Source: a virus (lineage: Duplodnaviria; Heunggongvirae; Uroviricota; Caudoviricetes). Taken from it: a DNA stretch of 21,304 nt. The notes under the pieces were generated by a model. It had not been told where the DNA came from and searched no databases. It saw only the letters and a program-made list of their open reading frames with translations. The stretch lies in IMG/VR virus record IMGVR_UViG_2778261461_000001, positions 1 through 21,304 of that record. One strand, given 5' to 3'. This document shows, piece after piece, positions 1,144 through 21,304 of the stretch. How positions within the stretch are numbered: position 1 is the stretch's first letter; every line of letters starts with the position of its first letter. The translations under genes and the position numbers were made by a program.

Positions 1144-1174
1144 GAACTGAGCTGTTCGCGATTTTAATTTCAAC

Positions 1175-2299: not shown

Positions 2300-2316
2300 A
2301 TTATTTATTCCTCGAC

Positions 2317-2730: not shown

Positions 2731-2915
2731 TAATGCACCTCTTTTAATTCATACATTGCTGAAATAATGACTTGTGATAAGCCATATTCTGATGATTCGC
2801 TTCTCACCGCAGCAATAGCCGTCTGAACATTAACAGCCTTCACATTCTGAGCGATACCAATTGTGTGGCCTATTGGGTTAACAGCTCGGGCAAATACACG
2901 GAAGGTTTTAAGCAT
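2730..2915 (-). CDS. Hypothetical small protein (61 aa), first gene of operon
   Basis: ATG at 2915 with GGGAG 7 nt upstream; lies directly downstream of the divergent regulatory region. Confidence 0.5.
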   Translation of the reverse strand: MLKTFRVFARAVNPIGHTIGIAQNVKAVNVQTAIAAVRSESSEYGLSQVIISAMYELKEVH

Positions 2916-3194
2916 GACTCACTCCCTGGCGGATTTTTGCAGCGAATACAGCAACACAACCGGACGGGCAACGGCTACGCGCTTCGCGTTCCGTCCAGGC
3001 GGTTACGTGGATGATTTGAGATTCTCCGGCACTCAGTGCCAGAAAACGCCACACAAAGGCCGTTTGTGTGTGTACAAGGTGTGGTATATGATTTACAGCA
3101 ACCATAACGGCTCCTAGTTTACGTTGTTGGTTAGACGCCCCGTATGTGTTCCCAGCACTGCGGGGCGTTGCTCTTTGTATTTCAACAATCCTTT

Positions 3195-3275
3195 CGGTGT
3201 GTTTCATGTTATGAGCGCATGAAACACACGTCAAGGCTTTTTGTATTTCTTTTTTTGTGTATACTGAAACACACC
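3195..3275. promoter_or_regulatory. Putative operator/promoter region between the RHH regulator gene and the small-protein operon
   Basis: Inverted repeat GTGTGTTTCATG (3197-3208) - 9 bp - CATGAAACACAC (3218-3229), with a third half-site TGAAACACAC at 3265-3274 overlapping a TATACT -10-like hexamer (3260-3265) about 30 bp upstream of the RHH start. Confidence 0.4.
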
Positions 3276-3295
3276 GATGATTAGGAGTTTCAGAA

Positions 3296-3601
3296 ATGGC
3301 AACGGCTAACAAAAACGCAAAATCACAACTGACAACTGTCAGAGTCCCACTAGATGTTATGCAAGGGATGGAATCCGTTAAGCTGGACGGTGAAAGCAAT
3401 GCCGGATTTATCGTAACCGCCATGCGCGGAGAAATAGCCCGCCGCCAAGCAGAAGGCAGCGGAGAAAATCCCCTTGTGTCGTCACTGGATGCCCTGGCTA
3501 AGGTCGAACAAATCGGCATCAAAGCAGCCGAGGAGATCGGGCAACTCGTCACCGTCGCGCGTGAAGAACTCCAGCGACGCAAGGTCAAAGAGCATGAATA
3601 G
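3296..3601 (+). CDS. Putative ribbon-helix-helix (Arc/CopG-like) transcriptional regulator (101 aa)
   Basis: AGGAG 8 nt upstream of the ATG; N-terminus (TTVRVPLDVMQGMESV...AGFIVTAMRGEIARRQ) has a beta-strand then two helices typical of RHH; sits beside the palindromic operator. Confidence 0.55.
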   Translation: MATANKNAKSQLTTVRVPLDVMQGMESVKLDGESNAGFIVTAMRGEIARRQAEGSGENPLVSSLDALAKVEQIGIKAAEEIGQLVTVAREELQRRKVKEHE

Positions 3602-3658
3602 CCAATATCAGCGCCATAGTTTGAGGAACGCAGGCGCATTGCTTTACAGGACAGCACC

Positions 3659-3838
3659 ATGAGCGACACAGAATCAACCAAAACACCATCACCAACTCGT
3701 AAGAGACGACGCAAAAATATAGCGCATGAACATGAATCAGAAAGATTCGCACCTTGTTCGTTTGCTCTTGAGAAATTCCTTAAAGAGCACAGGAAAAAGC
3801 TCTCGTTGCAAACCTTGGAACGAACCAAATCTGACTGA
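3659..3838 (+). CDS. Hypothetical basic small protein (59 aa); below the ORF-track length cutoff
   Basis: ATG at 3659 with AGGA 7 nt upstream, 57 bp after the RHH gene and followed by a terminator; translation MSDTESTKTPSPTRKRRRKNIAHEHESERFAPCSFALEKFLKEHRKKLSLQTLERTKSD. Confidence 0.3.
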   Translation: MSDTESTKTPSPTRKRRRKNIAHEHESERFAPCSFALEKFLKEHRKKLSLQTLERTKSD

Positions 3839-3904
3839 TCACATTGCCCACCAGCCGCAAATGTGGCATTGTTGGTGATGCTTTTGTTTTCCCTTGTTCC
3901 CACT

Positions 3905-3936
3905 GGCGACCCTTTTGCGGTCGCCTTTGTTTTGTC
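3905..3936 (+). terminator. Rho-independent terminator for the plus-strand RHH/59-aa unit
   Basis: GGCGACC-cttttgc-GGTCGCC hairpin followed by TTTGTTTTGT. Confidence 0.5.
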
Positions 3937-4513
3937 ACTGAATGCGGTTACCAAAGTAAAACTCAGGCTGATATTCACGTATCAGCGTTTTTTCTTCTTC
4001 CTCCAGCTCACGCTTTTTGCGCTTACATGCCTGTAGCTCCCTCCCCTTCTCGCTGGCACTTATTTGATATTGCTCTTTACGGCGGGAAAAATCCTGTAAT
4101 GCACCCCACGGGATACCATAAGTCCCCGTTTTTCTGATACCTGGTATCACATTTCTGAATACCCAGTTACTGAAACGATGAGCAAATGTGCCAGGCGTCG
4201 TTGCTTTGCGGCTGCGGGCTATTAGTTTGTAGAAACCTGACTCAGAGATAATTCTCATATTCTGATTTCCTCCTGGGGTGTAAGTTAAATTTACTCCCTT
4301 TTCATCATCATCAAGCATCTGCAACGCCGTACGCGAATTGGTTAGTTCCAGCGCAGCACAAACATCTTTTGCAACAAACCACGGATCGCCGTTCAGATAC
4401 ACCACACGAACGTTCACACTATCAAAGCGCAGAACGACGAGATCACGAATATCGCAGAATTTTTTCACTGGACGAGCGTACCCCTTGCCCGTCACGGCAA
4501 TATTTTTATTCAT
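3935..4513 (-). CDS. Bro-N domain protein (phage antirepressor-like), 192 aa
   Basis: N-terminal region (FDSVNVRVVYLNGDPWFVAKDVCAALEL) is a recognisable Bro-N/antirepressor-type motif; C-terminus is charged and coiled-coil-like. Confidence 0.7.
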   Translation of the reverse strand: MNKNIAVTGKGYARPVKKFCDIRDLVVLRFDSVNVRVVYLNGDPWFVAKDVCAALELTNSRTALQMLDDDEKGVNLTYTPGGNQNMRIISESGFYKLIARSRKATTPGTFAHRFSNWVFRNVIPGIRKTGTYGIPWGALQDFSRRKEQYQISASEKGRELQACKRKKRELEEEEKTLIREYQPEFYFGNRIQ

Positions 4514-4531
4514 CGCGTTTTTACCTTATAG

Positions 4532-4556
4532 ACAAAAAACCCCTCGTGATGAGGGG
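4532..4556 (-). terminator. Hairpin with T-run after alpA (terminator or attenuator)
   Basis: CCCCTC-gtgat-GAGGGG followed on the minus strand by TTTTTTGT, 14 bp after the alpA stop and about 20 bp before the Bro-N start. Confidence 0.4.
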
Positions 4557-4569
4557 CATTATTTACTGG

Positions 4570-4827
4570 TTATTGCTGTTTTGTTTTTCCAGGTTTCCAT
4601 CCAGGATGCCACTCACCACGGATCCATGCCTGAACCTCTGAAAGTCGATACCCTGCAGCACGTTCACCGATCTTGATACGTCGCGGGAATTTACCTGCCT
4701 GCTCCATTTTCCAGCGTGTTGAGTTTGCCAGCGTGGTAAGTGCTATGCACTCTTTTTCACGAATGAACCGATCAATGTCCTTCATTGTGCGCAAATCGTT
4801 TTCATCAACAAGAGAATAAATTGCCAT
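4570..4827 (-). CDS. alpA: AlpA-family transcriptional regulator / excisionase-like protein (85 aa)
   Basis: Sequence (...GKFPRRIKIGERAAGYRLSEVQAWIRGEW...) matches the AlpA/Vis-type HTH family; start is 1 nt after the integrase stop, GAGGTGG upstream. Confidence 0.8.
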   Translation of the reverse strand: MAIYSLVDENDLRTMKDIDRFIREKECIALTTLANSTRWKMEQAGKFPRRIKIGERAAGYRLSEVQAWIRGEWHPGWKPGKTKQQ

Positions 4828-4828
4828 A

Positions 4829-6070
4829 TCACACCACCTCTTTATTAAGCTCGATAACGTTGTTGTTAAATCCTGCTATCGTATTAAGGTAATTAACCCA
4901 CATATTAAGCACCTCAAGTTTTTTCTTTATATGCCTGCTTTTATTGTAAACACCAGCAACCCCTTTCACTTTATGACCTAAAAGAAGTTCGACAATATAA
5001 GGATCCGCCCCCATATCATTAAGCGTAGTGGAAAATGTGCGCCTGAAATCATGTATGCACCACAAGCCATTAGTATCATGACCAAGACGCCTGCATATTC
5101 TGTTTGCAGCCCCTGTTATTGTCGCCCTTTGCAAAGCACAACCGACAACATAACCGCGATTTTTTGTTTCTGCGTAAAGATTAACGATCCATTGTTTTAT
5201 TCCGTCAGGAACAGGCCTTACTATAGCCTCCTTGTTTTTGCTGTGCTCTTTTGGGACTGTCCATACCCAGTTTTTTAAATCCCATTCGTCCCAGGTGGAT
5301 AGCCTCGCCTCCTGCTGTCGGCAACCAAACACCAGGCAGATAACCATTATTCTTCGGTTATATATTGATGACAGAGTTAGCAAATTATTACCGTAAGCAT
5401 AAGACCATACATCAGCGGTTTCATTGATATTAAGAACGCGATCCCTTATACCGGATGAGCGCCCGACATAACTTACGTTAATATCTCCAAAGGGATCGCA
5501 CGCGATGTATTGCCTGACGCGACAAAAACGCAACGCCTGTTTGATATCAAGAAAAATTGCACCAGACATAACAGGCGCATTTTTTTTGATCCTGTCAAAG
5601 ACGGTAAGCCATGTGTGTAATTTGCACTGTTCTATAGCCATATCACCGATATAGGGGAAGATATGCTTTTCAAATCGTTTTATTAAATATTCATGCTCTT
5701 TTCTGGCTGTTGTGGCGTGATTGTCGTACCAGTAAAACAGCGCATCCCTTACGGTCACTGGTTGCATAGTTTTTTCGGCAGCAAGTTTTATTTGCCTGCG
5801 GGGGTCCAGATTTTCAGCCAGCCATTCACGGCACTGATCACGCATGCGCCTGGCCGTTGCAAGAGACATGTCAGGATAGCGACCAAGTGTAAGCCATACC
5901 GGAGGGGATTCCCTGCCACCAAGACGATAGTAAAAAACAAAGCTGATCCCCCCAACCATGCTTACACGCACAGACAACCCGCGCCCATCCGCTATTGTTT
6001 TTTGTTTGTCCTGCCGTTTTCCGACAAGACTCTTTAACAGTTTGTCACTGAGTTTGTTTTCAATAGCCAT
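4829..6070 (-). CDS. int: Tyrosine recombinase (P4/CP4-57-type integrase with N-terminal arm-binding domain), 413 aa
   Basis: N-terminal DUF4102-like arm-binding region (GRGLSVRV...FYYRLGGRE...LTLGRYPDMSLATAR) and C-terminal catalytic motifs (HDFRRT, LLGHK, GVYNKSRH); GAGGG upstream of the ATG. Confidence 0.85.
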   Translation of the reverse strand: MAIENKLSDKLLKSLVGKRQDKQKTIADGRGLSVRVSMVGGISFVFYYRLGGRESPPVWLTLGRYPDMSLATARRMRDQCREWLAENLDPRRQIKLAAEKTMQPVTVRDALFYWYDNHATTARKEHEYLIKRFEKHIFPYIGDMAIEQCKLHTWLTVFDRIKKNAPVMSGAIFLDIKQALRFCRVRQYIACDPFGDINVSYVGRSSGIRDRVLNINETADVWSYAYGNNLLTLSSIYNRRIMVICLVFGCRQQEARLSTWDEWDLKNWVWTVPKEHSKNKEAIVRPVPDGIKQWIVNLYAETKNRGYVVGCALQRATITGAANRICRRLGHDTNGLWCIHDFRRTFSTTLNDMGADPYIVELLLGHKVKGVAGVYNKSRHIKKKLEVLNMWVNYLNTIAGFNNNVIELNKEVV

Positions 6071-6086
6071 TAAAAGCCCTCAAGAG

Positions 6087-6142
6087 ATTTGCAATACACA
6101 CCCATCCCGATCGCCAATTTGCAATACACATTGCAATACACA
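6087..6142. repeat. Three direct repeats of TTGCAATACACA upstream of the integrase start (candidate arm-type or regulator binding sites)
   Basis: Copies at 6089-6100, 6119-6130 and 6131-6142, 20-70 bp upstream of int. Confidence 0.5.
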
Positions 6143-6270
6143 AAACCGCGAAAAACTGGAAGGGTGATGAACGGTCATCAAAAGCATGGAAAACGACATT
6201 CCAGACGCAGCAAGGGTTTCAGTGGAGTTGGCGAACGATGCGGGCAACTACGGTGAGATGATAGACATAA

Positions 6271-7303
<1,033 letters not shown>

Positions 7304-7954
7304 TCATCCTCTCCGGATAAGGCACGGGCGTAATCTGCCAGTGTTTTCTTGTTGGTTGCTGCACCATCCTCTTCCTGCAGGCTCGCCAGCAGTGCACTGA
7401 GATCCAGCTGCCAGCGGGAAATACTGATGCGCAGCGCCGCCAGCGCATATCAGTTCATCCAGCGCGGCTGCTTTGTTCATGGCTTTGATAATATCCCGTT
7501 TCAGGAAATCAACATGTCGGTTTTCCAGTTCCGGAAAACGCCGCTGCACCGACAGGGGGAGCCCGTCGAGAATACTGGCAATTTCACCTGCGATCCGCGA
7601 CAACACGAAAGTACAGAATGCGGTTTCCACCACTTCAGCGGAGTCTCTGGCATTCTTCAGTTCCTGTGCGTCGGCCTGCGCACGCGTAAGTCGATGGCGT
7701 TCGTACTCAATAGTCCCTGGCTGGAGATCTGCCTCGCTGGCCTGGCGCAGTTCTTCAACCTCCCGGCGCAGCTTTTCGTTCTCAATTTCAGCATCCCTTT
7801 CGGCATACCATTTTATAACGGCGGCAGAGTCATAAAGCACCTCATTACCCTTGCCACCGCCTCGCAGAACGGGCATTCCCTGTTCCTGCCAGTTCTGAAT
7901 GGTACGGATACTCGCACCGAAAATGTCAGCCAGCTGCTTTTTGTTGACTTCCAT
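7304..7954 (-). pseudogene. nu1: Terminase small subunit Nu1 fused to the 3' end of terminase large subunit gene A (internal deletion of nearly all of A)
   Basis: Matches lambda Nu1 up to ...AAALDELI (junction about 7447-7451); downstream DNA corresponds to the last about 50 codons of A read out of frame. Confidence 0.8.
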
Positions 7955-8131
7955 TGTTCATTCCACGGCCAAAAACAGAGAAAGGAAACGACAAAGGCCC
8001 AAAAGTTCGTTTTCAGCACCTGTCGTTTCCTTTCTTTTCAGGGGGTATTTTAAATAAAAACATTAAGTTACGACGAAGAAGAACGGAAACGCCTTAAACC
8101 GGAAAATTTTCATAAATAGCGAAAACCCGCG

Positions 8132-8143
8132 AGGTCGCCGCCC
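8132..8143. other. cosN cohesive-end site, with cosB and cosQ flanks at about 8040-8210
   Basis: AGGTCGCCGCCC is the reverse complement of the lambda cohesive end GGGCGGCGACCT; flanks match the remembered lambda left-end and right-end sequences. Confidence 0.8.
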
Positions 8144-8342
8144 CGTAACCTGTCGGATCGCCGGAAAGGACCCGCAAAATGATAATAATTATCATCTGCA
8201 TGTCACAACGTGCATCTACGCCATCAAACCACGTCAAATAATCAATTATGACGCAGGTATCGTATTAATTGATCTGCATCAACTTAACGTAAAAACAACT
8301 TCAGACAATACAAATCAGCGACACTGAATACGGGGCAACCTC

Positions 8343-8537
8343 ATGTCAACGAAGAACAAAACCCGCAGAACAACAACCCGCAACATCCGCTTTCCTAACC
8401 AAATGATTGAACAAATTAACATCGCTCTTGAGCAAAAAGGGTCTGGGAATTTCTCAGCCTGGGTCATTGAAGCCTGCCGTCGGAGACTAACGTCAGAAAA
8501 GAGAGCATATACATCAATCCAAAGTGATGATGAATAA
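8343..8537 (+). CDS. Small conserved ORF (64 aa) corresponding to a lambda right-end ORF; possible RHH-like fold
   Basis: DNA matches the remembered lambda right-end region; translation MSTKNKTRRTTTRNIRFPNQMIEQINIALEQKGSGNFSAWVIEACRRRL... Confidence 0.45.
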   Translation: MSTKNKTRRTTTRNIRFPNQMIEQINIALEQKGSGNFSAWVIEACRRRLTSEKRAYTSIQSDDE

Positions 8538-8896
8538 ACATCCCGGTTTCTTCCACCATCGCACCGGAAAAGCGACTATGAGGGTAACCCTGCGTCTGTC
8601 AGCACAGTAAAACCCGGTGTGCATCGTTTTTGATTATTCCCGCACACTCACGCAGAAGGAATTCCCCGTCGGGCTACGGTCATGGTTAATGCGGGAATAC
8701 GGCGACGATACAGCGCAGCTAAAAGGGTAATGGACAGATAGAGCGGTTTATTTCATTCCACAGGATTCTGAGTGCCCCCCTCCTCCAATAGGCTGAGCAT
8801 CCACCTATATAGTTTTATTTTTCATCAATCCATTTAACTATCGTTTAATTGTTGTCACATAGGATTCTGCCGTTTTTAACAATGCAGGATAATAAG

Positions 8897-9190
8897 ATGA
8901 AAAAAATGTTGTTTTCTGCCGCTCTGGCAATGCTTATTACAGGATGTGCTCAACAGACGTTTACTGTTGGAAACAAACCGACAGCAGTAACACCAAAGGA
9001 AACCATCACCCATCATTTCTTCGTTTCGGGAATTGGACAGGAGAAAACTGTTGATGCAGCCAAAATTTGTGGCGGCGCAGAAAATGTTGTTAAAACAGAA
9101 ACCCAGCAAACATTCGTAAATGGATTGCTCGGTTTTATTACTTTAGGCATTTATACTCCGCTGGAAGCGCGGGTGTATTGCTCACAATAA
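8897..9190 (+). CDS. bor: Bor lipoprotein (serum-resistance, lysogenic conversion), 97 aa
   Basis: MKKMLFSAALAMLITGCAQQTF... with lipobox LITGC; matches lambda Bor; AGGA upstream of ATG at 8897 (the ORF-track start at 8849 is rejected). Confidence 0.85.
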   Translation: MKKMLFSAALAMLITGCAQQTFTVGNKPTAVTPKETITHHFFVSGIGQEKTVDAAKICGGAENVVKTETQQTFVNGLLGFITLGIYTPLEARVYCSQ

Positions 9191-9221
9191 TTGCATGAGT
9201 TGCCCATCGATATGGGCAGCT

Positions 9222-9683
9222 CTATCTGCACTGCTCATTAATATACTTCTGGGTTCCTTCCAGTTGTTTTTGCATCGTGATCAGCCTCTCTCTGAGAGTG
9301 AAATAATCCCGTTCAGCGGTGTCTGCCAGTCGGGGGGAGGCTGCATTATCCACGCCGGAGGCGGTGGTGGCTTCACGCACTGACTGACAGACTGCTTTGA
9401 TGTGCAACCGACGACGACCAGCGGCAACATCATCACGCAGAGCATCATTTTCAGCTTTCGCATCAGCTAACTCCTTCGTGTATTTTGCATCGAGCGCAGC
9501 AACATCACGCTGACGCATCTGCATGTCAGTAATTGCCGCGTTCGCCAGCTTCAGTTCTCTGGCATTTTTGTCGCGCTGGGCTTTGTAGGTAATGGCGTTA
9601 TCACGGTAATGATTAACAGCCCATGACAGGCAGACGATGATGCAGATAACCAGAGCGGAGATAATCGCGGTTACTCTGTTCAT
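9222..9683 (-). CDS. Rz: Rz i-spanin (lambda-type), 153 aa from ATG at 9683
   Basis: Matches lambda Rz (…[58 protein letters not shown]...); ATGA overlap with the endolysin stop. Confidence 0.85.
9281..9463 (-). CDS. Rz1: Rz1 o-spanin lipoprotein embedded in Rz in the +1 frame
   Basis: [52 protein letters not shown]; lipobox plus proline-rich region typical of lambda Rz1. Confidence 0.8.
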
Positions 9684-10177
9684 TGCTGACCCCACAAACA
9701 GATTTCACGCTCAATCTCACGACGAGTCATGAGACCTTTCCATTGCTTACCGCCAGCATATGTCCAGCGACGTAGCTGATCACATGCGCCTTTGATATCG
9801 CCCTGGTTTATTTTGCGAAGAAGCGTCGATGTTCTGAAATTGCCAGCACCCACGTTGTAAACGAATGAGTAAAGAGCGCCGCGCGTTGTTTCCGGTATAT
9901 CGACTTTGATGTACGGGTTAATTTGTCTGGCGACCGTGGCAAGGTCTTTATTCAGGAGGGCTTTGCATTCTGCTTTGGTATACGTTTTACCGAGCATGAT
10001 GTCTTTTCCTGTATGCCCGTGACATACAGTCCATACACCAACAATATCTTTGTATGGTATGTAGCTGACACCTTCCAGACCATCGTTACCACTTGGGCCA
10101 GTGATTAACACTGATGCTATAGCAATTGCTCCGCCACCAATAGCAGCAGCAACGGCTTTTCGTAATGATGGAGGCAT
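9680..10177 (-). CDS. R: SAR endolysin (phage 21 R-type, T4-lysozyme family with N-terminal signal-anchor-release domain), 165 aa
   Basis: N-terminal Gly/Ala-rich SAR segment ([20 protein letters not shown]) followed by a lysozyme-like domain; overlaps the holin stop. Confidence 0.85.
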
Positions 10178-10392
10178 TATTCACCTCTCGCAGCCTTGCG
10201 CTTATCTTCTTTAATCTTGAAATAAAGGTTTGTCAGGTACGTCAGCAGGCCAAATACCAGGCTACCCAGCACACCTATTGCTGCCCACTGTGAGGGCGTG
10301 ACTTTATCGAGCAGCTGTAAAAACCAGTAACCGGCACTACCTGCTGAGGTGCCATAGGCGACACCCGTTGTTAACTTATCCATGGATTTCAT
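10177..10392 (-). CDS. S: Class II pinholin (S21-type), about 71 aa from MKSMDKL
   Basis: Two transmembrane segments and a dual-start motif (MKSMDKL); GAGGTG upstream of ATG at 10392 (the ORF-track start at 10437 is probably too long). Confidence 0.8.
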
Positions 10393-10980
10393 AACCCCAC
10401 CTCGCAGACAAAGCGGGTGTAAATTGAGGGAATACAACGTATCGCAAAAAAGCAGAAACGTAACAGACTCGGAGTCAGTGAATAACTCAGGTATTGAGTT
10501 ATCAGCTAATATCGAGACTCAAAAAATGGAAAAACCAGCTCGACGGCGGGTTTAAGCTGTGTGACGAAGTAACCACTCTTAACAGCATAACCAATTTTTT
10601 ACGTACGTAAACCACTGAATGATATTTATGAGAATGCTACCGAGTGTTCAAAACTCCACCACAAATACATAAGAAAACCTCAACAAATAACCAATAAATA
10701 ATTTCAGATGTTATTTTTAGTTGATTTAAATTAAACTGCCGAATTATAGAACCCCCATAAATAACAGCCATTAATATAAATTAGCTAATAGGTTTATTTT
10801 TGTTCAAATAAGAGCCATAAATAGGTTTCGATAGAAAAAGTTCAGATAAAAATAGAGATCTACTTCACAAATTAAATGAGAAACTAAAACTTACATCTTG
10901 AAATAATCACATTGATTAGATGAATATTTATCGCGCAGTGACATCATTTTTTAATAATAGTTCAAAAAAAAGGGCTCACG

Positions 10981-12063
10981 ATGAAAAAATTAACAGTGGC
11001 AATTTCTGCTGTAGCTGCATCAGTACTGATGGCGATGTCTGCTCAGGCAGCTGAAATTTATAATAAAGACAGTAACAAGCTGGATCTGTACGGGAAAGTT
11101 AATGCTAAGCACTACTTCTCCTCTAATGATGCAGATGATGGTGATACTACTTATGCCCGTCTTGGCTTCAAAGGTGAAACCCAAATCAACGATCAACTGA
11201 CTGGTTTCGGTCAGTGGGAATATGAATTCAAAGGCAACCGCGCTGAATCTCAAGGTTCCTCCAAAGATAAAACCCGTCTTGCCTTCGCTGGCCTGAAATT
11301 CGGTGACTACGGCTCCATCGATTATGGCCGTAACTACGGTGTAGCATACGATATTGGTGCATGGACCGACGTTCTGCCAGAATTCGGTGGCGATACCTGG
11401 ACCCAAACAGATGTATTCATGACTGGTCGCACCACAGGTGTTGCAACTTATCGTAACAACGACTTCTTTGGTCTGGTTGATGGCCTGAACTTTGCAGCTC
11501 AGTATCAGGGCAAAAATGACCGAAATGAAGTAACTGAAGCTAATGGCGATGGTTTCGGTTTCTCAACTACTTATGAGTATGAAGGATTCGGCGTGGGTGC
11601 AACCTATGCTAAATCTGATCGCACTAATAATCAGGTTATCTACGGTAACAACGGTCTGAATGCTTCTGGTCAAAATGCTGAAGTATGGGCAGCTGGTCTG
11701 AAATATGATGCGAACAACATCTATCTGGCCACCACCTATTCTGAAACCCAGAACATGACTGTTTTTGGTAATAACCATATTGCCAACAAAGCACAAAACT
11801 TCGAAGCTGTTGCACAATATCAGTTCGACTTCGGCCTGCGTCCATCCGTTGCTTACCTGCATTCTAAAGGAAAAGACTTGGGTGTTTGGGGTGATCAGGA
11901 CCTGGTTGAGTATGTTGATGTAGGTGCAACCTATTACTTCAACAAAAATATGTCCACTTTTGTTGACTACAAAATCAACCTGATTGATAAGAGCGATTTC
12001 ACGAAAGCATCTGGCGTTGCTACCGATGATATCGTTGCTGTAGGTATGGTTTACCAGTTCTAA
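10981..12063 (+). CDS. nmpC: Prophage-encoded general porin of the OmpC/OmpF/NmpC (Lc) family, 360 aa with signal peptide
   Basis: Signal peptide ending AQA, then [23 protein letters not shown]... and C-terminal ...VAVGMVYQF typical of enterobacterial porins; position between Q and the lysis cassette on the opposite strand matches DLP12 nmpC and PA-2 lc. Confidence 0.85.
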
Positions 12064-12190
12064 TTTGATTACTAAAAGGTATGTTGTGGGAGGCTTTGCC
12101 TCCCCAACATATAAGTGGCTCCCTCAAGCCACTTCCTTTAGAAGCACAACCTTGCTTCTAACTATACAAACCTTCTGTTATATATTACCC

Positions 12191-12215
12191 TTTATTTTTG
12201 GGGGCGTTTCAACGC
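12191..12215 (+). terminator. Rho-independent terminator downstream of the porin gene
   Basis: GGGGCG-tttcaa-CGCCCC followed by ATTTTT. Confidence 0.6.
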
Positions 12216-12251
12216 CCCATTTTTAATAACTTTTAGTAAATAATTGGCGTA

Positions 12252-12635
12252 TTAATTAGAGTTATTAACAACGATATCCATCTCTAACCGGATATCTAAT
12301 GCCATTAACATCCCTTCAATTATGCCCTCAGCCTTTTGTAACCTTTTCCCGATATAACCATCAGAGCAGCAATGCTTACCTGCCAGTGACATGAATGTCA
12401 TACCGACTACATAATAATCTACTAATAAATCGTGCAAATCGCTGTTGTTCTTTTTCAGACGGGCCATGCACCCGCAAATGATCATCGCGTCATCGTCACA
12501 ACATTGCGGGCGAGATTTTACTTTTGAAAGAATTAATCCCTTAAAACCGGCGGCAATGGACGACCAGGTCACATCTTCATGATTATTAGCCGCCCACGCT
12601 CCCCAACGCTCAAGAACCATCTGAATATCACGCAT
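12252..12635 (-). CDS. Q: Late-gene antiterminator Q (phage 82/21/DLP12 QuuD-type), 127 aa from ATG at 12635
   Basis: Cys-rich zinc-binding region ([19 protein letters not shown]); GGAG upstream of ATG at 12635 (the ORF-track TTG start at 12650 is rejected); sits between rusA and the lysis genes. Confidence 0.75.
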
Positions 12636-12720
12636 CAACTTACTCCACAAAAATCAGACCAGAACGCCAATTACAAGCAAAAATCAACAAAACAGTATTA
12701 GTTGATTGTTATCTCTGACT

Positions 12721-12861
12721 TCATACTCCTGCTCCTGTCAGGGTTTTGGCGTAATTCTTCAGTATTCGGTAATCGGTCAAAACAGAACCGGGGAAACGAT
12801 ATAAGCGCAGATGCCCCCAGCGGTGGCGAAGAAGTTCTGCCATATAAAACTCAAACATCAT
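12721..12861 (-). CDS. Small ORF (46 aa) between rusA and Q, YlcG-like by position and length; below the ORF-track cutoff
   Basis: ATGATG start overlapping the rusA stop (ATGA); translation [46 protein letters not shown]. Confidence 0.35.
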
Positions 12862-13220
12862 TCATTCCCCATTTCGGTGATGGTCAGTTCCAGCCTCCCA
12901 CCTTTGGTAACAGGCATCTTCACAACGCGGTAATCAACGACCTGAGCATCATCCAGCCAGAAACCTGCTTTAGTGAGTGCGTCAAAAGCGGCTTTTTGCA
13001 GATTATCCAGGTCACGGCGACGGCGATCCGGCATGTGGCACTCAATGCGGATTTTCACAGGCATAGCCAGGCCGATATCCAGCATTGCGTTTTTAATGAT
13101 TCGGGCGACGTTATCGCGGTATGCCTGCCCCTCTGCGCTGACGTGCGTGCGCCCGCGATTATGGCGGTAATAGCGATTATTGCTCGGAGGCCAGGGTAAT
13201 GTGATGCTGTAGGTATTCAC
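12858..13220 (-). CDS. rusA: RusA Holliday-junction resolvase (120 aa, GTG start)
   Basis: [102 protein letters not shown]... matches RusA. Confidence 0.85.
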
Positions 13221-13526
13221 GCCTTAATAACCCCCTCTTTCAGCCAGATAACCTGTGTTCTCGCCATACCTTCCAGCGCGCATTCTTTTGCATATGCAGC
13301 ATCGACTTGCTTGGCATGCCCTTTACCGGCAATCTTCTGTATGCGCTAAACCTAGATAGAATCCACTCTGTGCACATTGAAGCCCGCTCTATGCTTCCTT
13401 TCAGGTATTGAAGGGATTGAGATGGGCTAAGCATTATTGGCCTCCTGCATCAGGAGAAAGACAATCATGGCGGCGCGGAGAGGTCTGGTATCAAATATTG
13501 GGCTTGAAGAACTGAAAGAACACCAA

Positions 13527-13548
13527 GCCGCCTGATGGCGGTTTTTTC
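13527..13548 (+). terminator. Hairpin with T-run upstream of xis (terminator-like)
   Basis: GCCGCC-tgat-GGCGGT followed by TTTTTTCTT. Confidence 0.4.
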
Positions 13549-13574
13549 TTGCGTGTAATTGCGGAGACTTTGCG

Positions 13575-13793
13575 ATGTACTTGACACTTCAGGAGTGGAA
13601 CGCTCGCCAGCGACGCCCAAGAAGCCTTGAAACAGTTCGTCGATGGGTGCGCGAATGCAGGATATTCCCTCCTCCGGTTAAGGATGGAAGAGAATATCTG
13701 TTCCACGAATCAGCGGTAAAGGTTGACTTAAATCGACCAGTAACAGGTAGCCTTTTGAAGAGGATCAGAAATGGGAAGAAGGCGAAGTCATGA
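13575..13793 (+). CDS. xis: Lambda excisionase Xis (72 aa)
   Basis: [72 protein letters not shown] matches lambda Xis. Confidence 0.9.
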
Positions 13794-14841
13794 GCGCCGG
13801 GATTTACCCCCTAACCTTTATATAAGAAACAATGGATATTACTGCTACAGGGACCCAAGGACGGGTAAAGAGTTTGGATTAGGCCGAGACAGGCGAATCG
13901 CAATCACTGAAGCTATACAGGCCAACATTGAGTTATTTTCAGGACACAAACACAAGCCTCTGACAGCGAGAATCAACAGTGATAATTCTGTTACGTTACA
14001 TTCATGGCTTGATCGCTACGAAAAAATCCTGGCCAGCAGAGGAATCAAGCAGAAGACACTCATAAATTACATGAGCAAAATTAAAGCAATAAGGAGGGGT
14101 CTGCCTGATGCTCCACTTGAAGACATCACCACAAAAGAAATTGCGGCAATGCTCAATGGATACATAGACGAGGGCAAGGCGGCGTCAGCCAAGTTAATCA
14201 GATCAACACTGAGCGATGCATTCCGAGAGGCAATAGCTGAAGGCCATATAACAACAAACCCGGTCGCCGCCACTCGCGCAGCAAAATCAGAGGTAAGGAG
14301 ATCAAGGCTTACGGCTGACGAATACCTGAAAATTTATCAAGCAGCAGAATCATCACCATGTTGGCTCAGACTTGCAATGGAACTGGCTGTTGTTACCGGG
14401 CAGCGAGTTGGTGATTTATGCGAAATGAAGTGGTCTGATATCGTAGATGGATATCTTTATGTCGAGCAAAGCAAAACAGGCGTAAAAATTGCCATCCCTA
14501 CAACATTGCGTGTTGATGCTCTCGGGATATCAATGAAGGAAACACTTGATAAATGCAAAGAGATTCTTGGCGGAGAAACCATAATTGCATCTACTCGTCG
14601 TGAACCGCTTTCATCCGGCACAGTATCAAGGTATTTTATGCGCGCACGAAAAGCATCAGGTCTTTCCTTCGAAGGGGATCCGCCTACCTTTCACGAGTTG
14701 CGCAGTTTGTCTGCAAGACTCTATGAGAAGCAGATAAGCGATAAGTTTGCTCAACATCTTCTCGGGCATAAGTCGGACACCATGGCATCACAGTATCGTG
14801 ATGACAGAGGCAGGGAGTGGGACAAAATTGAAATCAAATAA
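13771..14841 (+). CDS. int: Lambda-type integrase Int (356 aa)
   Basis: [68 protein letters not shown]... matches lambda Int; overlaps the xis 3' end as in lambda. Confidence 0.9.
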   Translation: MGRRRSHERRDLPPNLYIRNNGYYCYRDPRTGKEFGLGRDRRIAITEAIQANIELFSGHKHKPLTARINSDNSVTLHSWLDRYEKILASRGIKQKTLINYMSKIKAIRRGLPDAPLEDITTKEIAAMLNGYIDEGKAASAKLIRSTLSDAFREAIAEGHITTNPVAATRAAKSEVRRSRLTADEYLKIYQAAESSPCWLRLAMELAVVTGQRVGDLCEMKWSDIVDGYLYVEQSKTGVKIAIPTTLRVDALGISMKETLDKCKEILGGETIIASTRREPLSSGTVSRYFMRARKASGLSFEGDPPTFHELRSLSARLYEKQISDKFAQHLLGHKSDTMASQYRDDRGREWDKIEIK

Positions 14842-14915
14842 TGATTTTATTTTGACTGATAGTGACCTGTTCGTTGCAACAAATTGATAAGCAATGCTTT
14901 TTTATAAGGCCTACT

Positions 14916-14930
14916 TAGTATAAAAAAGCA
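14916..14930. other. Prophage/chromosome junction attL: att core TTAGTATAAAAAAGC flanked by the phage P' arm (left) and the chromosomal B arm (right)
   Basis: Core is the reverse complement of GCTTTTTTATACTAA; right flank AGGCTTCA matches the E. coli attB arm; left flank resembles the lambda P' arm with about 3 differences (from memory). Confidence 0.8.
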
Positions 14931-14975
14931 GGCTTCAACGGATTCATTTTTCTATTTCATAGCCCGGAGCAACCT

Positions 14976-16259
14976 GTGAACACATTTTCAGTTTCCCGTC
15001 TGGCGCTGGCATTGGCTTTTGGCGTGACGCTGACCGCCTGTAGCTCAACCCCGCCCGATCAACGTCCTTCTGATCAAACCGCGCCTGGTACCTCTTCTCG
15101 CCCGATTCTGTCGGCAAAAGAAGCGCAGAATTTCGATGCTCAACACTATTTTGCATCCCTGACACCAGGTGCTGCAGCGTGGAATCCTTCCCCGATTACC
15201 CTGCCTGCGCAACCTGACTTTGTTGTCGGCCCGGCGGGCACTCAAGGTGTAACGCATACCACGATTCAGGCGGCGGTAGATGCGGCAATTATCAAGCGTA
15301 CCAACAAGCGCCAGTATATTGCCGTGATGCCTGGTGAGTATCAGGGAACGGTATATGTCCCTGCCGCTCCGGGTGGAATTACTCTGTACGGTACAGGTGA
15401 AAAACCGATTGATGTGAAGATTGGGCTTTCCCTTGATGGTGGCATGAGCCCTGCCGACTGGCGTCACGACGTCAACCCGCGCGGCAAATATATGCCAGGT
15501 AAACCAGCGTGGTATATGTACGATAGCTGCCAGAGCAAACGCAGCGACAGTATCGGTGTTCTCTGCTCTGCGGTCTTCTGGTCACAAAACAATGGCCTGC
15601 AACTGCAAAATCTGACCATCGAAAACACGCTGGGCGATAGCGTAGATGCAGGTAACCATCCGGCGGTGGCACTGCGTACTGATGGTGACCAGGTACAGAT
15701 TAACAACGTTAACATTCTCGGTCGTCAGAACACCTTCTTTGTCACCAACAGCGGTGTGCAGAACCGTCTGGAAACGAATCGTCAGCCGCGTACGCTGGTG
15801 ACCAACAGCTACATTGAAGGGGATGTGGATATCGTTTCTGGTCGCGGCGCAGTGGTGTTCGATAACACCGAATTCCGCGTGGTGAACTCACGTACTCAGC
15901 AAGAAGCGTATGTGTTTGCACCGGCTACGCTGTCCAACATTTACTACGGTTTCCTCGCCGTAAACAGCCGTTTCAATGCTTTCGGTGATGGTGTGGCGCA
16001 ACTGGGCCGCTCGCTGGATGTTGATGCCAATACCACCGGTCAGGTGGTGATCCGTGATAGCGCCATCAACGAAGGTTTTAACACGGCTAAACCGTGGGCC
16101 GATGCGGTGATCTCTAATCGTCCGTTTGCGGGTAATACCGGCAGCGTAGATGATAACGACGAAATACAGCGCAATCTGAATGACACTAACTACAACCGCA
16201 TGTGGGAATACAATAACCGCGGCGTGGGTAGTAAAGTGGTTGCAGAGGCGAAGAAGTAA
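14976..16259 (+). CDS. ybhC: YbhC outer-membrane lipoprotein (pectinesterase-like acyl-CoA thioesterase), 427 aa, GTG start
   Basis: Signal peptide with lipobox LTAC; sequence and position next to attB-lambda match E. coli ybhC. Confidence 0.85.
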   Translation: MNTFSVSRLALALAFGVTLTACSSTPPDQRPSDQTAPGTSSRPILSAKEAQNFDAQHYFASLTPGAAAWNPSPITLPAQPDFVVGPAGTQGVTHTTIQAAVDAAIIKRTNKRQYIAVMPGEYQGTVYVPAAPGGITLYGTGEKPIDVKIGLSLDGGMSPADWRHDVNPRGKYMPGKPAWYMYDSCQSKRSDSIGVLCSAVFWSQNNGLQLQNLTIENTLGDSVDAGNHPAVALRTDGDQVQINNVNILGRQNTFFVTNSGVQNRLETNRQPRTLVTNSYIEGDVDIVSGRGAVVFDNTEFRVVNSRTQQEAYVFAPATLSNIYYGFLAVNSRFNAFGDGVAQLGRSLDVDANTTGQVVIRDSAINEGFNTAKPWADAVISNRPFAGNTGSVDDNDEIQRNLNDTNYNRMWEYNNRGVGSKVVAEAKK

Positions 16260-16264
16260 GAGCA

Positions 16265-16480
<216 letters not shown>

Positions 16481-16492
16481 ACATGGCGCTTT

Positions 16493-18754
16493 TTACATCT
16501 GACGGTTTTTATTGAAGTTAATCAAACTACCCGCCTTGATAATCTCGCGCTCTTCAGCAGTCAGACTTTCCATATAGAGCGTAATTTCCGTTACCGGCGC
16601 ATCTTCATGGATCACATAACCTTTAAACGTCGTACCCGGATTATCCAGCGCCGCTTTAATGCCAGGGATGTAAATGTAATCCCCCACTTCAAAGGTTGGT
16701 ACTTCCGCCATTTGCAGCGGTAACATCCCCCAGTTGATGACGTTAGAACGATAGCGTTTAGTCGCGTACTCCTCGGCAATATTCGCCAGACCGCCAATCA
16801 CACGCTGGCAGCTCGCCGCCTGTTCACGCGCAGAACCATCGCCTGGTTTCACCGCATAGACCATGCTGCCAATTTCAGTTTGCAGCGGATCAATATGCTC
16901 CTGACCAGCAATCTGCTTAATGCGCGCAAACACCTCTGTCAGCTCGCTGACATTCCCCGCCAGACGCTGATTTTCCAGCTCAGCAGTCGCTTTACTTCTG
17001 CTAACATAACCGGGATCGCGGCGAGACAGGGTAAACTCCGCCAGACCAATCGGATTTGAACGATAAGAAGAGGTTTCACCGGAAGGAATCAGTTCGTCGG
17101 TGGTGGTCACTTCGTCGAGGATCTTCGAGCACACTTTCAGGACGATATTGTCAGTCAGCGCACCCAATTCCGGCCAGTCTTTAATGTTCGGCCCGTAAAT
17201 CAGCGGTTGCTGAGTTGCCCCTTTCACAAAGCCCTGATAAACACGGTTTTTATACGGCGTTACATCGAAGGCGTACTCCGGCACGTTGTCCCAGCAATCA
17301 AGTTCGCTGGCAGAGGTTAAATAGCCACCGTTTGCCGCAGTCGCAGCGATAGAACGAGCGTCCATCAACGCCACCGCTGACATCTGCCCATTAGCTGGCT
17401 TAGAGCCTTCGCGGTTCGGGAAGTTACGCGTGGTGTGGCGAATACTCAAACCGTTGTTGATTGGCGTATCGCCCGCGCCAAAGCATGGGCCGCAGAACGC
17501 GGTTCTGATGATTGCGCCTGCGCCAATCAAATCTGCTACCACACCTTTTTTGGCGAGATCCATAAACACCGGCTGTGATGACGGGTAAACTGCCAGCGAG
17601 AAGGTGTCATTGCCACAGGATTGACCGCGCAGTGCATTCGCCGCCGCGATGACGTTTTCGTAGTTACCGCCAGAACAGCCCGCGATAATCCCCTGCTGCA
17701 CTTTCAGGCGACCATTTTCCACTTTATCCAGCAGCGAGAGTTTGGCTTTACCGTGCGCCACGCGTTCGGACTCAATTTCAATCTCACGCAGAATGTCGGT
17801 CAGGTTCTGGTTCAGTGTGTCGATTTCATACACGTTGCTCGGGTGGAACGGCAGCGCAATCATTGGTTTGATGGCGCTTAAATCAACGCTGATGCAGCCA
17901 TCGTAGTACGCCATCGGTTGAGGGTTAAGCTGGCAGTAATCCTGGCCGCGACCGTGCAGCGCCAGCCAGTTATGGACTTCTTCATCGGTTTGCCAGACAG
18001 AACTTAAACAGGTCGTTTCAGTGGTCATCACGTCAACGCTGTTACGGAAATCGGTAGAGAGCGCGCTAACGCCCGGTCCAACGAACTCCATGACTTTGTT
18101 TTTGACGTAACCGTTTTTGAACACCGCGCCAATGATAGCCAGCGCCACATCCTGTGGCCCCACATACGGCGCAGGTTTTCCGGTCAGATGCACCGCAACC
18201 ACGCCCGGATAGTCGATATCCCAGGTGTCATTAAGCAGCTGTTTTACCAACTCACCGCCGCCCTCACCGACTGCCATTGTCCCTAATGCACCGTAACGGG
18301 TGTGGCTGTCTGACCCGAGGATCATTTTGCCGCCGCCTGCCATCATCTCACGCATATATTGATGGATGACCGCAATATGCGGAGGCACAAAAATACCGCC
18401 ATAACGCTGGGCCGCCGATAAACCAAAAACATGGTCATCACCGTTAATAGTGCCGCCGACGGCGCAGAGTGAGTTATGGCAGTTGGTCAGCACATACGGC
18501 AGCGGGAAACGTTCCATACCGGACGCTTTAGCGGTCTGTACAATACCAACAAAGGTAATATCGTGAGAGGCTAATGAATCAAACTTAATTTTAAGTTTAT
18601 CCATATTTCCGGACGTATTATGCGAAGAGAGAATAGACCAGGCAATAGTGCCTTTTTTGGCTTCTTCTTTTTTAATTTCGCCGGTGAAATGTTCTTCGGC
18701 AATTATTTCGTTATTACTGGCGAGAAACACGCCTTTTTCAGATAACTTGATCAT
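16493..18754 (-). CDS. ybhJ: YbhJ aconitase-family putative hydratase (753 aa from ATG at 18754)
   Basis: Aconitase-family motifs (GSDSHT, CGPCFG); GGAG upstream of ATG at 18754 (the ORF-track GTG start at 18778 is rejected). Confidence 0.85.
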
Positions 18755-18936
18755 CAAATGCTCCAGATATCTGCGCACCGTGAAGTGCGCAGAAAGATAA
18801 TAAATGGATATACTCTAAATAATTCGAGTTGCAGGAAGGCGACAAGCGAGTGAATCCCCAGGAGCTTACATAAGTAAGTGACTGGGGTGAGCGAACGCAG
18901 ACGCAGCACATGCAACTTGAAGTATGACGAGAATAT

Positions 18937-20370
18937 TTACAGCATGTTCCAGCCGATCAGCATATTCCACCACCACACGCCGAGGGTGATATGCACCAGG
19001 AAGGTTAATATCGTCAGTACCGCACCGACCAACCACCAGGATTTAATATCGTTATAACCCACGCCAAAGATGACCGGACCTGCCGCGCCGCCATAGTGAG
19101 TAACCATGCCGCCATAGGAGTTGGAGAACAACAGTGCCAGCGCGGTTAACATTAACGGTGCGCCGGAGACGTTCGCCAGCATGGCAAATACCGGTAACAT
19201 AGCAACGATATAGGCACTACCGGAAGCGAAGAAATAACGCACGATAATGCTGAGGAAAATAATAACGAAGAAAGCAACGTTACCGTGACCATCAAATGCC
19301 AGGTTATTTTTAAAGACTTCAGCTAACCATTCGAAGAATTTAACTTTCGATAATAAGGAGCTTAAGCCGATAATACCGCCGTACCAGATTAAGGTATTCC
19401 AGCCGCCTTTATTTTTAACCACGTCTTCCCAGGTAACGATACCCAGCAGCAGCATGGTTGCCATAACAACGATTGCCACGGTGGATTCATCAACCCCCAG
19501 AGACTTACTGAAAATCCAGCCCAGCAGCGCCAGCACAAAGACACCGAGCAGCATTTTTTCGCGGATTTTCATCGGTCCTAGTTCGGCAAGGCCCGCTTTA
19601 GCGATGGTTTTGTTATCCACCTTCTTAATTTCTGGTGGATACATGGTGTAAATCACCAGCGGGGTGACCAGCAGCATAATGATGCCCGGCAATCCGGCTG
19701 CCAGCGCCCATCCACCCCAGCTAATTTGCAGGTGCAGAATGTCGTTGATCATTTTCAGCGCCAGAATGTTCCCCGCCATTGCGGTAAAGAACATATAGCT
19801 GGTGGTTTTGGTGACCATGTAAATGGACATCATCAGGTAATGTCCGACACGACGCGGACTTTTTTCCGGTTCGGACCCCAAAGCCACCGCCACGCTGTTG
19901 ATGATCGGTAACACAATGCCGCCCGCACGCGCGGTGTTAGACGGTGTTGCCGGAGCCAGTACCAGATCGAGGAATACCGTAACGTAACCCAGACCCAGCG
20001 TGGTGTTACCGATTTTACCAATCAGCAGATAGGCAATACGTTTACCTAAACCGGTGGTCACAAATGCGGCGCTTAAGGTAAACGCCGAGAACACCAGCCA
20101 GGTGGTACCTGAAGAGTAACCGCTTAATACGGCGGTGGTTTTAAACGCACCGTCGGATAAGTTACCGACCACCACCATTGAGGCAGCAACGGCAATTAAC
20201 AGTACGACAGGTTCCGGGAAAGGCTTGATAACCAGCCCCACAATGGCCGCCAGGTAAATACCAAAAAGCACCCACGCCAGTTCGCTTAATCCTGCCGGAG
20301 CTGGCATAAAACCAATAATACATGGGATCGCTAATATCAGAATTAGCTTCCATAACGATTTCTTATTCAT
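18937..20370 (-). CDS. ybhI: YbhI DASS-family di/tricarboxylate transporter (477 aa)
   Basis: Multi-pass hydrophobic protein; sequence and position match E. coli ybhI. Confidence 0.85.
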   Translation of the reverse strand: MNKKSLWKLILILAIPCIIGFMPAPAGLSELAWVLFGIYLAAIVGLVIKPFPEPVVLLIAVAASMVVVGNLSDGAFKTTAVLSGYSSGTTWLVFSAFTLSAAFVTTGLGKRIAYLLIGKIGNTTLGLGYVTVFLDLVLAPATPSNTARAGGIVLPIINSVAVALGSEPEKSPRRVGHYLMMSIYMVTKTTSYMFFTAMAGNILALKMINDILHLQISWGGWALAAGLPGIIMLLVTPLVIYTMYPPEIKKVDNKTIAKAGLAELGPMKIREKMLLGVFVLALLGWIFSKSLGVDESTVAIVVMATMLLLGIVTWEDVVKNKGGWNTLIWYGGIIGLSSLLSKVKFFEWLAEVFKNNLAFDGHGNVAFFVIIFLSIIVRYFFASGSAYIVAMLPVFAMLANVSGAPLMLTALALLFSNSYGGMVTHYGGAAGPVIFGVGYNDIKSWWLVGAVLTILTFLVHITLGVWWWNMLIGWNML

Positions 20371-20445
20371 TTAAAATCCTGTTCTTTCTGTATGACTCAT
20401 ACAGAAGTCCTTTATTGATTGTCCTTATCCTGACAACGAATTTTT

Positions 20446-21227
20446 TCAGGGAAGATAAACTTCAACGGAAAATATTTTTCTGGTCGTCCGAATAACAGAT
20501 GCGCGTAACGTCGTGGCATCCTGACCTTCATTACTTAAATGAACGTCGAGCGCACCACTGGGGTGTTCAATATTGATATTGCCGTATCCTACAGAAGGGA
20601 CGATTTGTCGGGTGACGGTGCCTTCCAATGCACAACTACTGGAAATAGCAATAGCACCGGTTATCGCCAGCGCGCGATGGCAAGAATGCGGCATAAAATA
20701 ACGCACATTAATTGCCCCGCCTTTCTGCGCTGGAGAAATAAGCACAGGTTTAGGGATAACCATATTACTGACATCACCTAAGCCCATTGCTTTACCCGCT
20801 TGTAGACGGATAGATTCAATGCGGGCTAATAATGCTTTGTCGGCATCCAGTTCCGCCGGTAATTCATAACCTGTTTTTCCCAGATATTCAGCCGGAATAA
20901 TGACGACTGGCATCGCCATATCGATACAGGTCACCGGGACATCGTCAAAATAATCAATCTGATTATCAGTCGGGAAAACTTTTCCGGTTTTGGTTCCAGC
21001 GGCATTCAGGAAAGTGAGCGCAACCGGTGCGGCAGTACCCGGTACGCCGTCAATTCTGGCGCTACCCTCGTACTCGACAACACCATTTGGCGTTTGCACA
21101 TCAGCTTCGATGAACGTACCCGTATTGACGTTGCGGATACGTACGCGAGTAACTGGCGAAGTCGCTGCAATCAAACCATTTTCAATGGCGAATGCCCCAA
21201 CACCAGACAGCATATTGCCGCAGTTAG
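20446..21227 (-). pseudogene. ybhH: ybhH (PrpF-family isomerase) interrupted by IS5; only the 3' portion is present
   Basis: Reading frame continues upstream of the ORF-track Met (…PLIRTFPNCGNMLSGVGAF…) and is broken at 21227/21228 where the IS5 end begins. Confidence 0.8.
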
Positions 21228-21304
21228 GGAAGGTGCGAATAAGCGGGGAAATTCTTCTCGGCTGACTCAGTCATTTCATTTCTTCATGTTTGAGCCGATT
21301 TTTT
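21228..21304. mobile_element. IS5 terminal region (partial, runs off right edge)
   Basis: GGAAGGTGCGAATAAGCGGGGAAATTCTTCTCGGCTGACTCAGTCATTTCATTTCTTCATGTTTGAGCCGATTTTTT matches an IS5 end; preceded by TTAG (CTAA), the IS5 target motif. Confidence 0.8.

Follow-up and report, generated by a model that had tools for sequence, protein, structure and literature searches.

How does a lambdoid prophage come to have its integrase and excisionase genes set almost directly against its late genes? The question is raised by a stretch of 21,304 nucleotides, here called the window, in which the start of rusA (13220) and the start of xis (13575) are only 354 bp apart, both in the window itself and in the annotation of Escherichia coli strain C1. 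The window represents E. coli chromosome around the lambda attachment site, and its positions 1471-21304 are 99.98% identical to strain C1 (NZ_CP195942). The original prediction was that the interval is a deletion joint linking int-xis to the nin/late region. The alignments bear this out: the two sequences that meet in the interval are found far apart on the genome of a live phage, and the interval is very probably the scar of a deletion within a lambdoid prophage at the canonical lambda attB next to ybhC.

The deletion joint

The joint can be placed to the base pair.

13504..13506, no strand: novel deletion joint; crossover in the common TT (13504-13505), with both parental sequences aligned

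The exact breakpoint is 13505/13506, within ninX and ORF55, and not at the ybcO remnant found next to rusA. In a BLAST comparison with strain YZ_2_2 (locus L002), a relative whose remnant at this site is longer, window 7439-13505 aligns with L002 697-6764 and window 13488-21228 with L002 10908-18648, the alignment breaking at the joint. Read base by base against YZ_2_2, the ninX side is matched exactly up to 13505 (…GGTATCAAATATTGGGCTT) and the ORF55 side exactly from 13504 on (TTGAAGAACTG…). The fusion thereby joins the final 25 codons of ninX to the final 9 of lambda ORF55. In phage Chlobot (PP925838) the two flanks are at 5215 and 18166, and the 12,950 bp between them are missing from the window.

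What brought these two sites together? The crossover consists of a 2 bp TT inside an imperfect direct repeat with 13 of 18 positions matching (13488-13505), a match reached by just 14 of 200,000 random position pairs drawn from the Chlobot phage. Both parents are thus identifiable and the crossover is inside a short direct repeat. The 13 of 18 shared bases, with TT at the crossover, are the signature of short-homology illegitimate recombination. Such an event would have joined ninX at codon ~88 to ORF55 at codon ~46. The Chlobot DNA between the flanks carries the 5' part of ninX, ninE, a methylase gene, ninB, ren, P, O, cII, cro, cI, N, sieB, ral, kil, gam, bet, exo and ea/orf61-63 genes. Relative to Chlobot, the genes from ninE to the ea genes would have been lost, cIII included, and with them pL, pR, pRM, oriLambda and the nut sites (nutL/R).

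The joint is rare. It is present exactly in one of 5,426 complete E. coli genomes, that of strain C1, and the 35 nt joint sequence has no exact match in contigs of metagenomes, viruses and species-representative genomes. With one genome in 5,426 and none in the three other collections, the joint is taken to be recent and private to a lineage. A lambda-type int at ybhC is present in 1,913 of the 5,426 genomes, about a third. A functional fusion gene across the joint was also looked for, but the candidates, a mechanical open reading frame of 32 aa with a TTG start (13437-13535) and antisense open reading frames, were rejected as genes.

Contents of the 354 bp interval

The interval consists of remnants of both parents.

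13217..13306, minus strand: 3' remnant of ybcO/DUF1364, 29 codons; PGAP pseudogene in C1; homology to ybcO of K-12 and phage 82 stops at 13306
13307..13426, minus strand: ancestral spacer between ninX and the ybcO remnant; same spacer in viable phages, 100% in Chlobot
13427..13505, minus strand: 3' remnant of ninX, last 25 of 113 codons and stop; PGAP pseudogene in C1 (fragment 13427-13504)
13506..13535, plus strand: 3' remnant of lambda ORF55, last 9 codons and stop; exact match to YZ_2_2 (L002 10926-10955) and to Chlobot from 18166
13527..13547, plus strand: predicted intrinsic terminator hairpin GCCGCC-TGAT-GGCGG + T6, upstream of xis; from terminator scan and fold
13549..13562, plus strand: putative CII-binding site TTGC-N6-TTGC of the CII-dependent pI promoter; maps to the pI/CII features of phage 434 record OL657226

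An out-of-frame remnant of a ybcO-like gene had been proposed upstream of rusA. The remnant is there, but it is truncated rather than out of frame; it lacks its 5' part, has no frameshift and retains the native 4 nt overlap with rusA, as in K-12. Judged by sequence comparison, it is an older mosaic boundary, separate from the present deletion. It was considered as a mark of the deletion and rejected, being ancestral and found in viable phages (Chlobot). Among the 5,426 complete E. coli genomes, 584 have the arrangement ninX-spacer-'ybcO-rusA, as do 27 phage records, viable phages among them. Within the spacer, 13372-13426 shows homology to the junction of ninX and ninF in P22-like phages and resembles the start of ninF; query positions 152-285 match ninX/ninF at 88-93% identity. 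The ninX remnant is 100% identical to the intact ninX of YZ_2_2, ECCHD184 and Chlobot.

On the other side of the breakpoint, the ORF55 remnant, the terminator and the CII/pI site derive from the lambda/434 pL-operon segment just 5' of xis. ORF55 is annotated in the phage 434 and lambda records, and in phage 434 a terminator is annotated at the matching position (PMID 6305007). An Rfam scan of the interval found no RNA families.

The int-xis-att module

The interval is followed by a lambda recombination module and the host gene ybhC.

13575..13793, plus strand: xis, lambda excisionase, 72 aa; Pfam Exc 1-72
13771..14841, plus strand: int, lambda-type tyrosine integrase, 356 aa, full length; Pfam Arm-DNA-bind_1 and Phage_integrase
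14915..14929, minus strand: lambda att core of attL (GCTTTTTTATACTAA); exact match, 0.06 expected by chance; between int and ybhC
14976-16259, plus strand: ybhC; PGAP annotation of C1, in window coordinates

Int is identical to lambda Int (PDB 5J0N) at 352 of 356 residues over 1-356, and the four substitutions, as read from the alignment, are outside R212, K235, H308, R311, H333 and Y342. Xis is that of lambda (PDB 1PM6) apart from the engineered C28S of that entry. The module is complete, i.e. an Int with arm-binding domain and catalytic residues, Xis and the 15 bp core. Window 13494-14900 has 98.4-98.8% DNA identity to the attP-int-xis-ORF55 region of lambda/434, including terminator, pI/CII site, xis, int and core, but of the pL operon nothing is left upstream of ORF55 codon ~46. 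Of the elements that regulate int-xis expression (N-dependent pL and CII-dependent pI), pL, N and cII are deleted and the pI/CII site is kept.

Host homology in prophage-free genomes begins at 14915. The window itself ends short of attR. In C1 the remnant runs on through tail-fibre fragments and a diguanylate cyclase gene to a second, intact core (attR) beside ybhB, and the prophage is thus bounded by att cores at the phage attachment site, attL in the window and attR in C1.

The late block

The genes to the left of the joint represent a late module of the DLP12 type.

12858..13220, minus strand: rusA, Holliday-junction resolvase, 120 aa; identical to K-12 RusA; NCBIfam NF007305, 279 bits, 1-120 of 120
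12721..12861, minus strand: ylcG, 46 aa; annotated in C1; 2 substitutions relative to K-12
12252..12635, minus strand: quuD, late antiterminator Q (PF06530), 127 aa; Pfam 1-118 of 118, E 1e-52
10981..12063, plus strand: NmpC/OmpC-type porin (moron), 360 aa; Pfam Porin_1 1-337 of 337
10177..10392, minus strand: essD, S21-type holin (pinholin family), 71 aa; identical to K-12 EssD; Pfam Phage_holin_2_1 1-63 of 64
9680..10177, minus strand: rrrD, SAR endolysin, 165 aa; one substitution relative to K-12; full-length match to PDB 4ZPU (RrrD) and 3HDE
9222..9683, minus strand: rzpD (Rz, 153 aa); Pfam Phage_lysis 1-126 of 126
9281..9463, minus strand: rzoD (Rz1, 60 aa), embedded in rzpD, +1 frame; Pfam Rz1 1-40 of 41; lipobox-like LVVVGC
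8897..9190, plus strand: bor/iss serum-resistance lipoprotein, 97 aa; Pfam Lambda_Bor 1-75 of 75; iss in the C1 annotation

Is the lysis cassette complete, as had been predicted? The Pfam profiles of Q, holin, endolysin, Rz/Rz1, bor and porin are covered end to end; the lysis genes are near-identical to those of K-12, and all are full length. QuuD shares 126 of 127 residues with K-12 QuuD (one substitution), and RzpD, RzoD, Bor and YlcI have the lengths of their K-12 counterparts. EssD begins MKSM, an M1/M4 dual start. RrrD matches 4ZPU/3HDE (R21-type) over 1-165; its N-terminus is rich in Gly/Ala, and E35, D44 and T50 are present. The pair is that of an S21 holin with dual start and a GH24 SAR endolysin with an E-D-T triad, and the full-length PF06530 Q and the Rz gene with embedded Rz1 are those of a DLP12-type late module. 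The two proposed conversion genes, porin and bor, are likewise full length by Pfam, and the porin scores 515 bits in the NCBIfam OmpC subfamily against a cut-off of 484. Beyond bor come ylcI, a small-terminase fusion, W and a truncated portal gene (PGAP order in C1).

The regions upstream of essD and downstream of Q are conserved with K-12 apart from a 16 bp indel. The indel is a 16 bp insertion relative to K-12 DLP12 at window 10393-10440, just upstream of essD, in a control region that is otherwise conserved. In essD and rrrD, codon differences between the window and DLP12 number 18 synonymous vs one non-synonymous; this constraint may date from a time when the phages were active.

The porin region (10400-12070) is mosaic, with identities of 99.1% to ECCHD184, 98.1% to YZ_2_2 and ~89-91% to FY10, MMC-J-0105, SSGw2 and K-12; the lysis and Q segments that flank it have 97-99.6% identity in the same relatives. 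The pattern suggests that the phage porin has undergone allele exchange or diversifying evolution.

Relatives and parent architecture

The parent phage would have combined a lambda int-xis-att module with a nin-Q-lysis module of the DLP12/phage 82 type, an architecture that is intact in Chlobot and in the FY10 prophage. Chlobot, a live phage, is collinear with the window to the left and to the right of the joint, at 100% on the nin-Q side and 98.4% on the int-xis side. Both Chlobot and the FY10 prophage keep an early region of 12.95-13.8 kb that is absent from the window (cI, cro, cII, O, P, ren, ninB, N, kil, gam, bet, exo). The FY10 prophage occupies the same attB as the window and keeps cI-O-P; its N is frameshifted and an IS5 is inserted.

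Three other remnants, those of YZ_2_2/ML35, ECCHD184 and MMC-J-0105, share attB and late block with the window, have near-identical host flanks and are without cI, cro and N. None has the 13505/13506 joint, and the rusA-Q-porin-lysis genes are retained in all. YZ_2_2/ML35 has a methylase/orf61 joint and IS5 (L002 7500-7560). In ECCHD184 a deletion bounded by IS1 extends from int' to cII, truncating int (L005 14096-15015), and in MMC-J-0105 one bounded by IS3 extends from O to the ea region (L006 12832-14203). By genome comparison, the scar and these sister strains show that loss of the early region from the same lambda attB prophage has taken several different routes.

Was the loss seen in the window a single event? 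The segment identities between the window and five relatives are mosaic in the flanks, and a direct ancestor was not found among these five. As the identities are mosaic, a one-step deletion of 12.95 kb and a nested one of ~4 kb are inseparable.

Alternative readings

In a nested history the immunity region would have been lost first, through a YZ_2_2-like joint or an IS-associated deletion, and 13505/13506 would be a later trimming of ~4 kb. We regard this as a real possibility, to be held tentatively. Three other early-region deletions are found in strains whose host flanks are near-identical (ybhJ 99.96-100%), the interval missing from the window includes the YZ_2_2 joint, and relative to YZ_2_2 just 4,161 bp are missing; in addition, the ybcO-ninX segment is 100% identical to that strain. 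Against it, the YZ_2_2-type joint is itself rare (four of 5,426 genomes), and the orf55-xis segment of the window is identical to that of MMC-J-0105 but has 6 mismatches in 288 bp relative to YZ_2_2. An intermediate with the SNP pattern of the window was not found, and the deletion erased evidence. Could the joint instead have arisen by recombination between two different prophages of one host, the first lambda-like and at attB, the second DLP12-like and at argU or icd, with rearrangement of the chromosome? The late block is nearly identical to DLP12, which is at argU in K-12, and the same nin-late block is found at icd in SSGw2. This reading is nevertheless very improbable and largely refuted: lambda int-xis and the nin-Q-lysis block are intact and collinear in Chlobot and in FY10 (same attB), both parental breakpoint sequences occur on one phage genome 12.95 kb apart, and the C1 remnant is in normal chromosomal order between ybhC/attL and attR/ybhB. 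That the joint is an artefact of assembly or a chimera is hardly credible. Window 1-1470 does consist of IS10 and plasmid-type DNA that is absent at that place in C1, but the joint bears a typical microhomology signature and is carried in identical form by C1, an independently assembled complete genome with 99.8-100% identity at the joint and 99.98% over the surrounding 19.8 kb. The presence of the joint in C1 argues that it is real.

A further reading concerns selection. Adaptive domestication would have eliminated early genes that are lethal or inducible (kil, N, O/P, cro) and kept rusA, Q, porin, lysis genes and bor as useful to the host. At least four independent early-region deletions at attB, all with an intact late block, are consistent with this, as are the 18 synonymous vs one non-synonymous differences from DLP12 in essD and rrrD and the roles in biofilm and outer membrane vesicles (OMVs) reported for the DLP12 lysis genes (PMC7918800). 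Yet in prophages generally, lysis genes are preferentially lost from incomplete elements (PMC7744054), a trend that counts against domestication. Moreover, the signal of purifying selection can predate prophage decay, from the era of active phages, and five relatives were inspected, without a neutral model. The joint is private to one lineage and too young for retention of its neighbours to indicate selection, so late-gene retention here says nothing on selection. Domestication as an account of this locus is accordingly rated as quite unlikely. The broader proposition is that the attB-lambda family has repeatedly and independently lost its early region (through IS1, IS3, IS5 and microhomology) while host selection, and not neutral decay, kept the late block as a domesticated lysis/OMV/porin module under envelope-stress control; it is doubtful. 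Deletion within one lambdoid prophage, by one or more steps, remains the preferred reading of the interval.

Loss of early genes and expected behaviour

In the annotation of C1, no gene for cI, cro, N, O or P is found in the window or onward to attR/ybhB. The absence of recombination, immunity, N and replication genes had been predicted, and an early region elsewhere adjacent, between the window and attR/ybhB, was looked for in C1 and not found. Terminase gene A is deleted, the portal gene is truncated, and head and tail genes are absent. With genes essential for lytic growth missing (immunity/early regulation, replication, morphogenesis), the prophage is cryptic, and from its gene content neither induction nor plaque-forming phage would be expected.

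Did the joint provide a new promoter for Q? A consensus scan of the minus strand over 12600-14900 found no sigma-70-like site of at least 10/12; our own relaxed scan (at least 8/12) gave a best minus-strand site of 9/12, which is inside rusA. As no site of at least 10/12 is found upstream, the joint appears to have supplied no promoter for rusA-Q. For rusA-ylcG-quuD, the only strong promoter (pR) would be gone and none gained; immunity, replication and N-dependent read-through would all be absent.

The prophage had been described as locked in. The regulators are indeed gone, but the attL core, Int and Xis are intact, as is the attR core in C1; the lock is therefore probably one of regulation, not of structure. 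The int and xis genes would be shielded by the retained terminator and would need pL, which is gone, or a CII-activated pI, for which cII is gone. With pL and cII lost and the terminator retained, the element is presumably silent and immobile despite its intact att cores, Int and Xis. The attL/attR-Int-Xis set may remain usable in trans.

How would the late block behave? In K-12, the DLP12 lysis cassette is reported to be controlled by a Q-type antiterminator, RpoE and Hha and to affect biofilm and OMV production (PMC7918800). The Q-late promoter-lysis segment of DLP12 works when recombined into the live phage 434B (PMC9119081). By analogy with these DLP12 studies, Q-dependent late promoter and lysis functions are likely here; the late block should act as a low-level lysis cassette under QuuD, RpoE and Hha, and porin and bor would be expressed from their own promoters, as in DLP12. 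The strain carries a Q-lysis cassette, a phage porin and bor/iss without a repressor, and a superinfecting or co-resident lambdoid phage could trans-activate the late module or rescue it by recombination. Trans-activation and recombinational rescue of this kind are known for DLP12 qsr' and phage 434B.

Other features of the window

Several other constructs in the window can be recorded. A truncated satellite at 1840-6265 adjoins the lambda-like portal gene, which is cut at 6266.

4829-6070, minus strand: satellite int
4570-4827, minus strand: satellite AlpA-type HTH
3935-4513, minus strand: satellite BRO-N
2000-2299, minus strand: satellite DUF4222
1827-2003, minus strand: satellite primase fragment

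The junction of satellite int and portal gene is present in 64 of 5,426 genomes. In Z0117EC0116 (L011 2601-15101), a complete element of ~10.9 kb is found in the prophage portal gene, with its own capsid, decoration and small-terminase genes, and in FY10 a related satellite adjoins a truncated major capsid gene. The int beside a truncated portal gene was considered as a novel portal-targeting satellite and rejected, as 'helper-embedded PICIs' that target prophage late genes have been published (PMC10111431) and the satellite matches these.

The left end of the window (1-1470) differs from C1. An IS10 end with RNA-OUT is at 518-587. Large E. coli plasmids (~180-270 kb) carry a region with an H-NS-family gene to which 633-1470 is 100% identical, and at 1470/1471 this stretch meets a J tail-tip fragment, where a mechanical J/H-NS chimeric open reading frame (1175-1933) results. 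Window 1-1470 either represents a real IS10-associated insertion of DNA from a plasmid or is a chimera of assembly.

A second internal deletion joint is at 7448-7449 (open reading frame 7304-7954, minus strand), where, by comparison with FY10, the large terminase gene A has lost ~1.79 kb. It leaves a nu1'-'A fusion open reading frame of 216 aa, followed by W and the truncated portal gene. At the right end, 21224-21304 represents IS5 (81 bp identical to K-12 IS5), which truncates ybhH; ybhH (20446-21213) is annotated in C1 as a partial PrpF-domain gene. Between ybhC and ybhJ, a pair of ~100 bp repeats of 92% identity (16275-16469) overlaps an Rfam naRNA4 (REP-type) match at 16328-16398 and represents ordinary REP/BIME-type sequence.

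Comparison with DLP12

What does the locus add to what is known of cryptic prophages? The scar is a cleanly resolved case of the disarming of a lambdoid prophage, in which both parents and the microhomology are known, and it has little import beyond annotation. K-12 DLP12, studied for a long time, is the textbook case of a prophage without repressor and replication genes in which the Q-S-R-Rz cassette is intact. The significance of the present case is therefore modest. Cryptic lambdoid prophages with a DLP12-type late module are a well-known kind of element, and this one is a new and rare deletion allele of that kind.

The likeness to DLP12 (qsr') is close. The gene order rusA-ylcG-quuD-nmpC(porin)-essD-rrrD-rzpD/rzoD-borD-ylcI-nohD is the same, with 92-98% DNA identity, and DLP12, like the window, is without cI, cro, N, O and P and has retained an intact lysis cassette together with int and xis-like genes. 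The two differ in how this state is laid out. DLP12 is at argU and has another integrase; both xis and exo are pseudogenes there, its ybcO is intact and its nmpC is broken by IS5, and IS3, emrE and ybcK-M cargo stand in place of the early region. The prophage of the window, in contrast, occupies lambda attB, has near-wild-type lambda Int and Xis and an intact porin, and had its early region removed by one visible joint with a 2 bp overlap.
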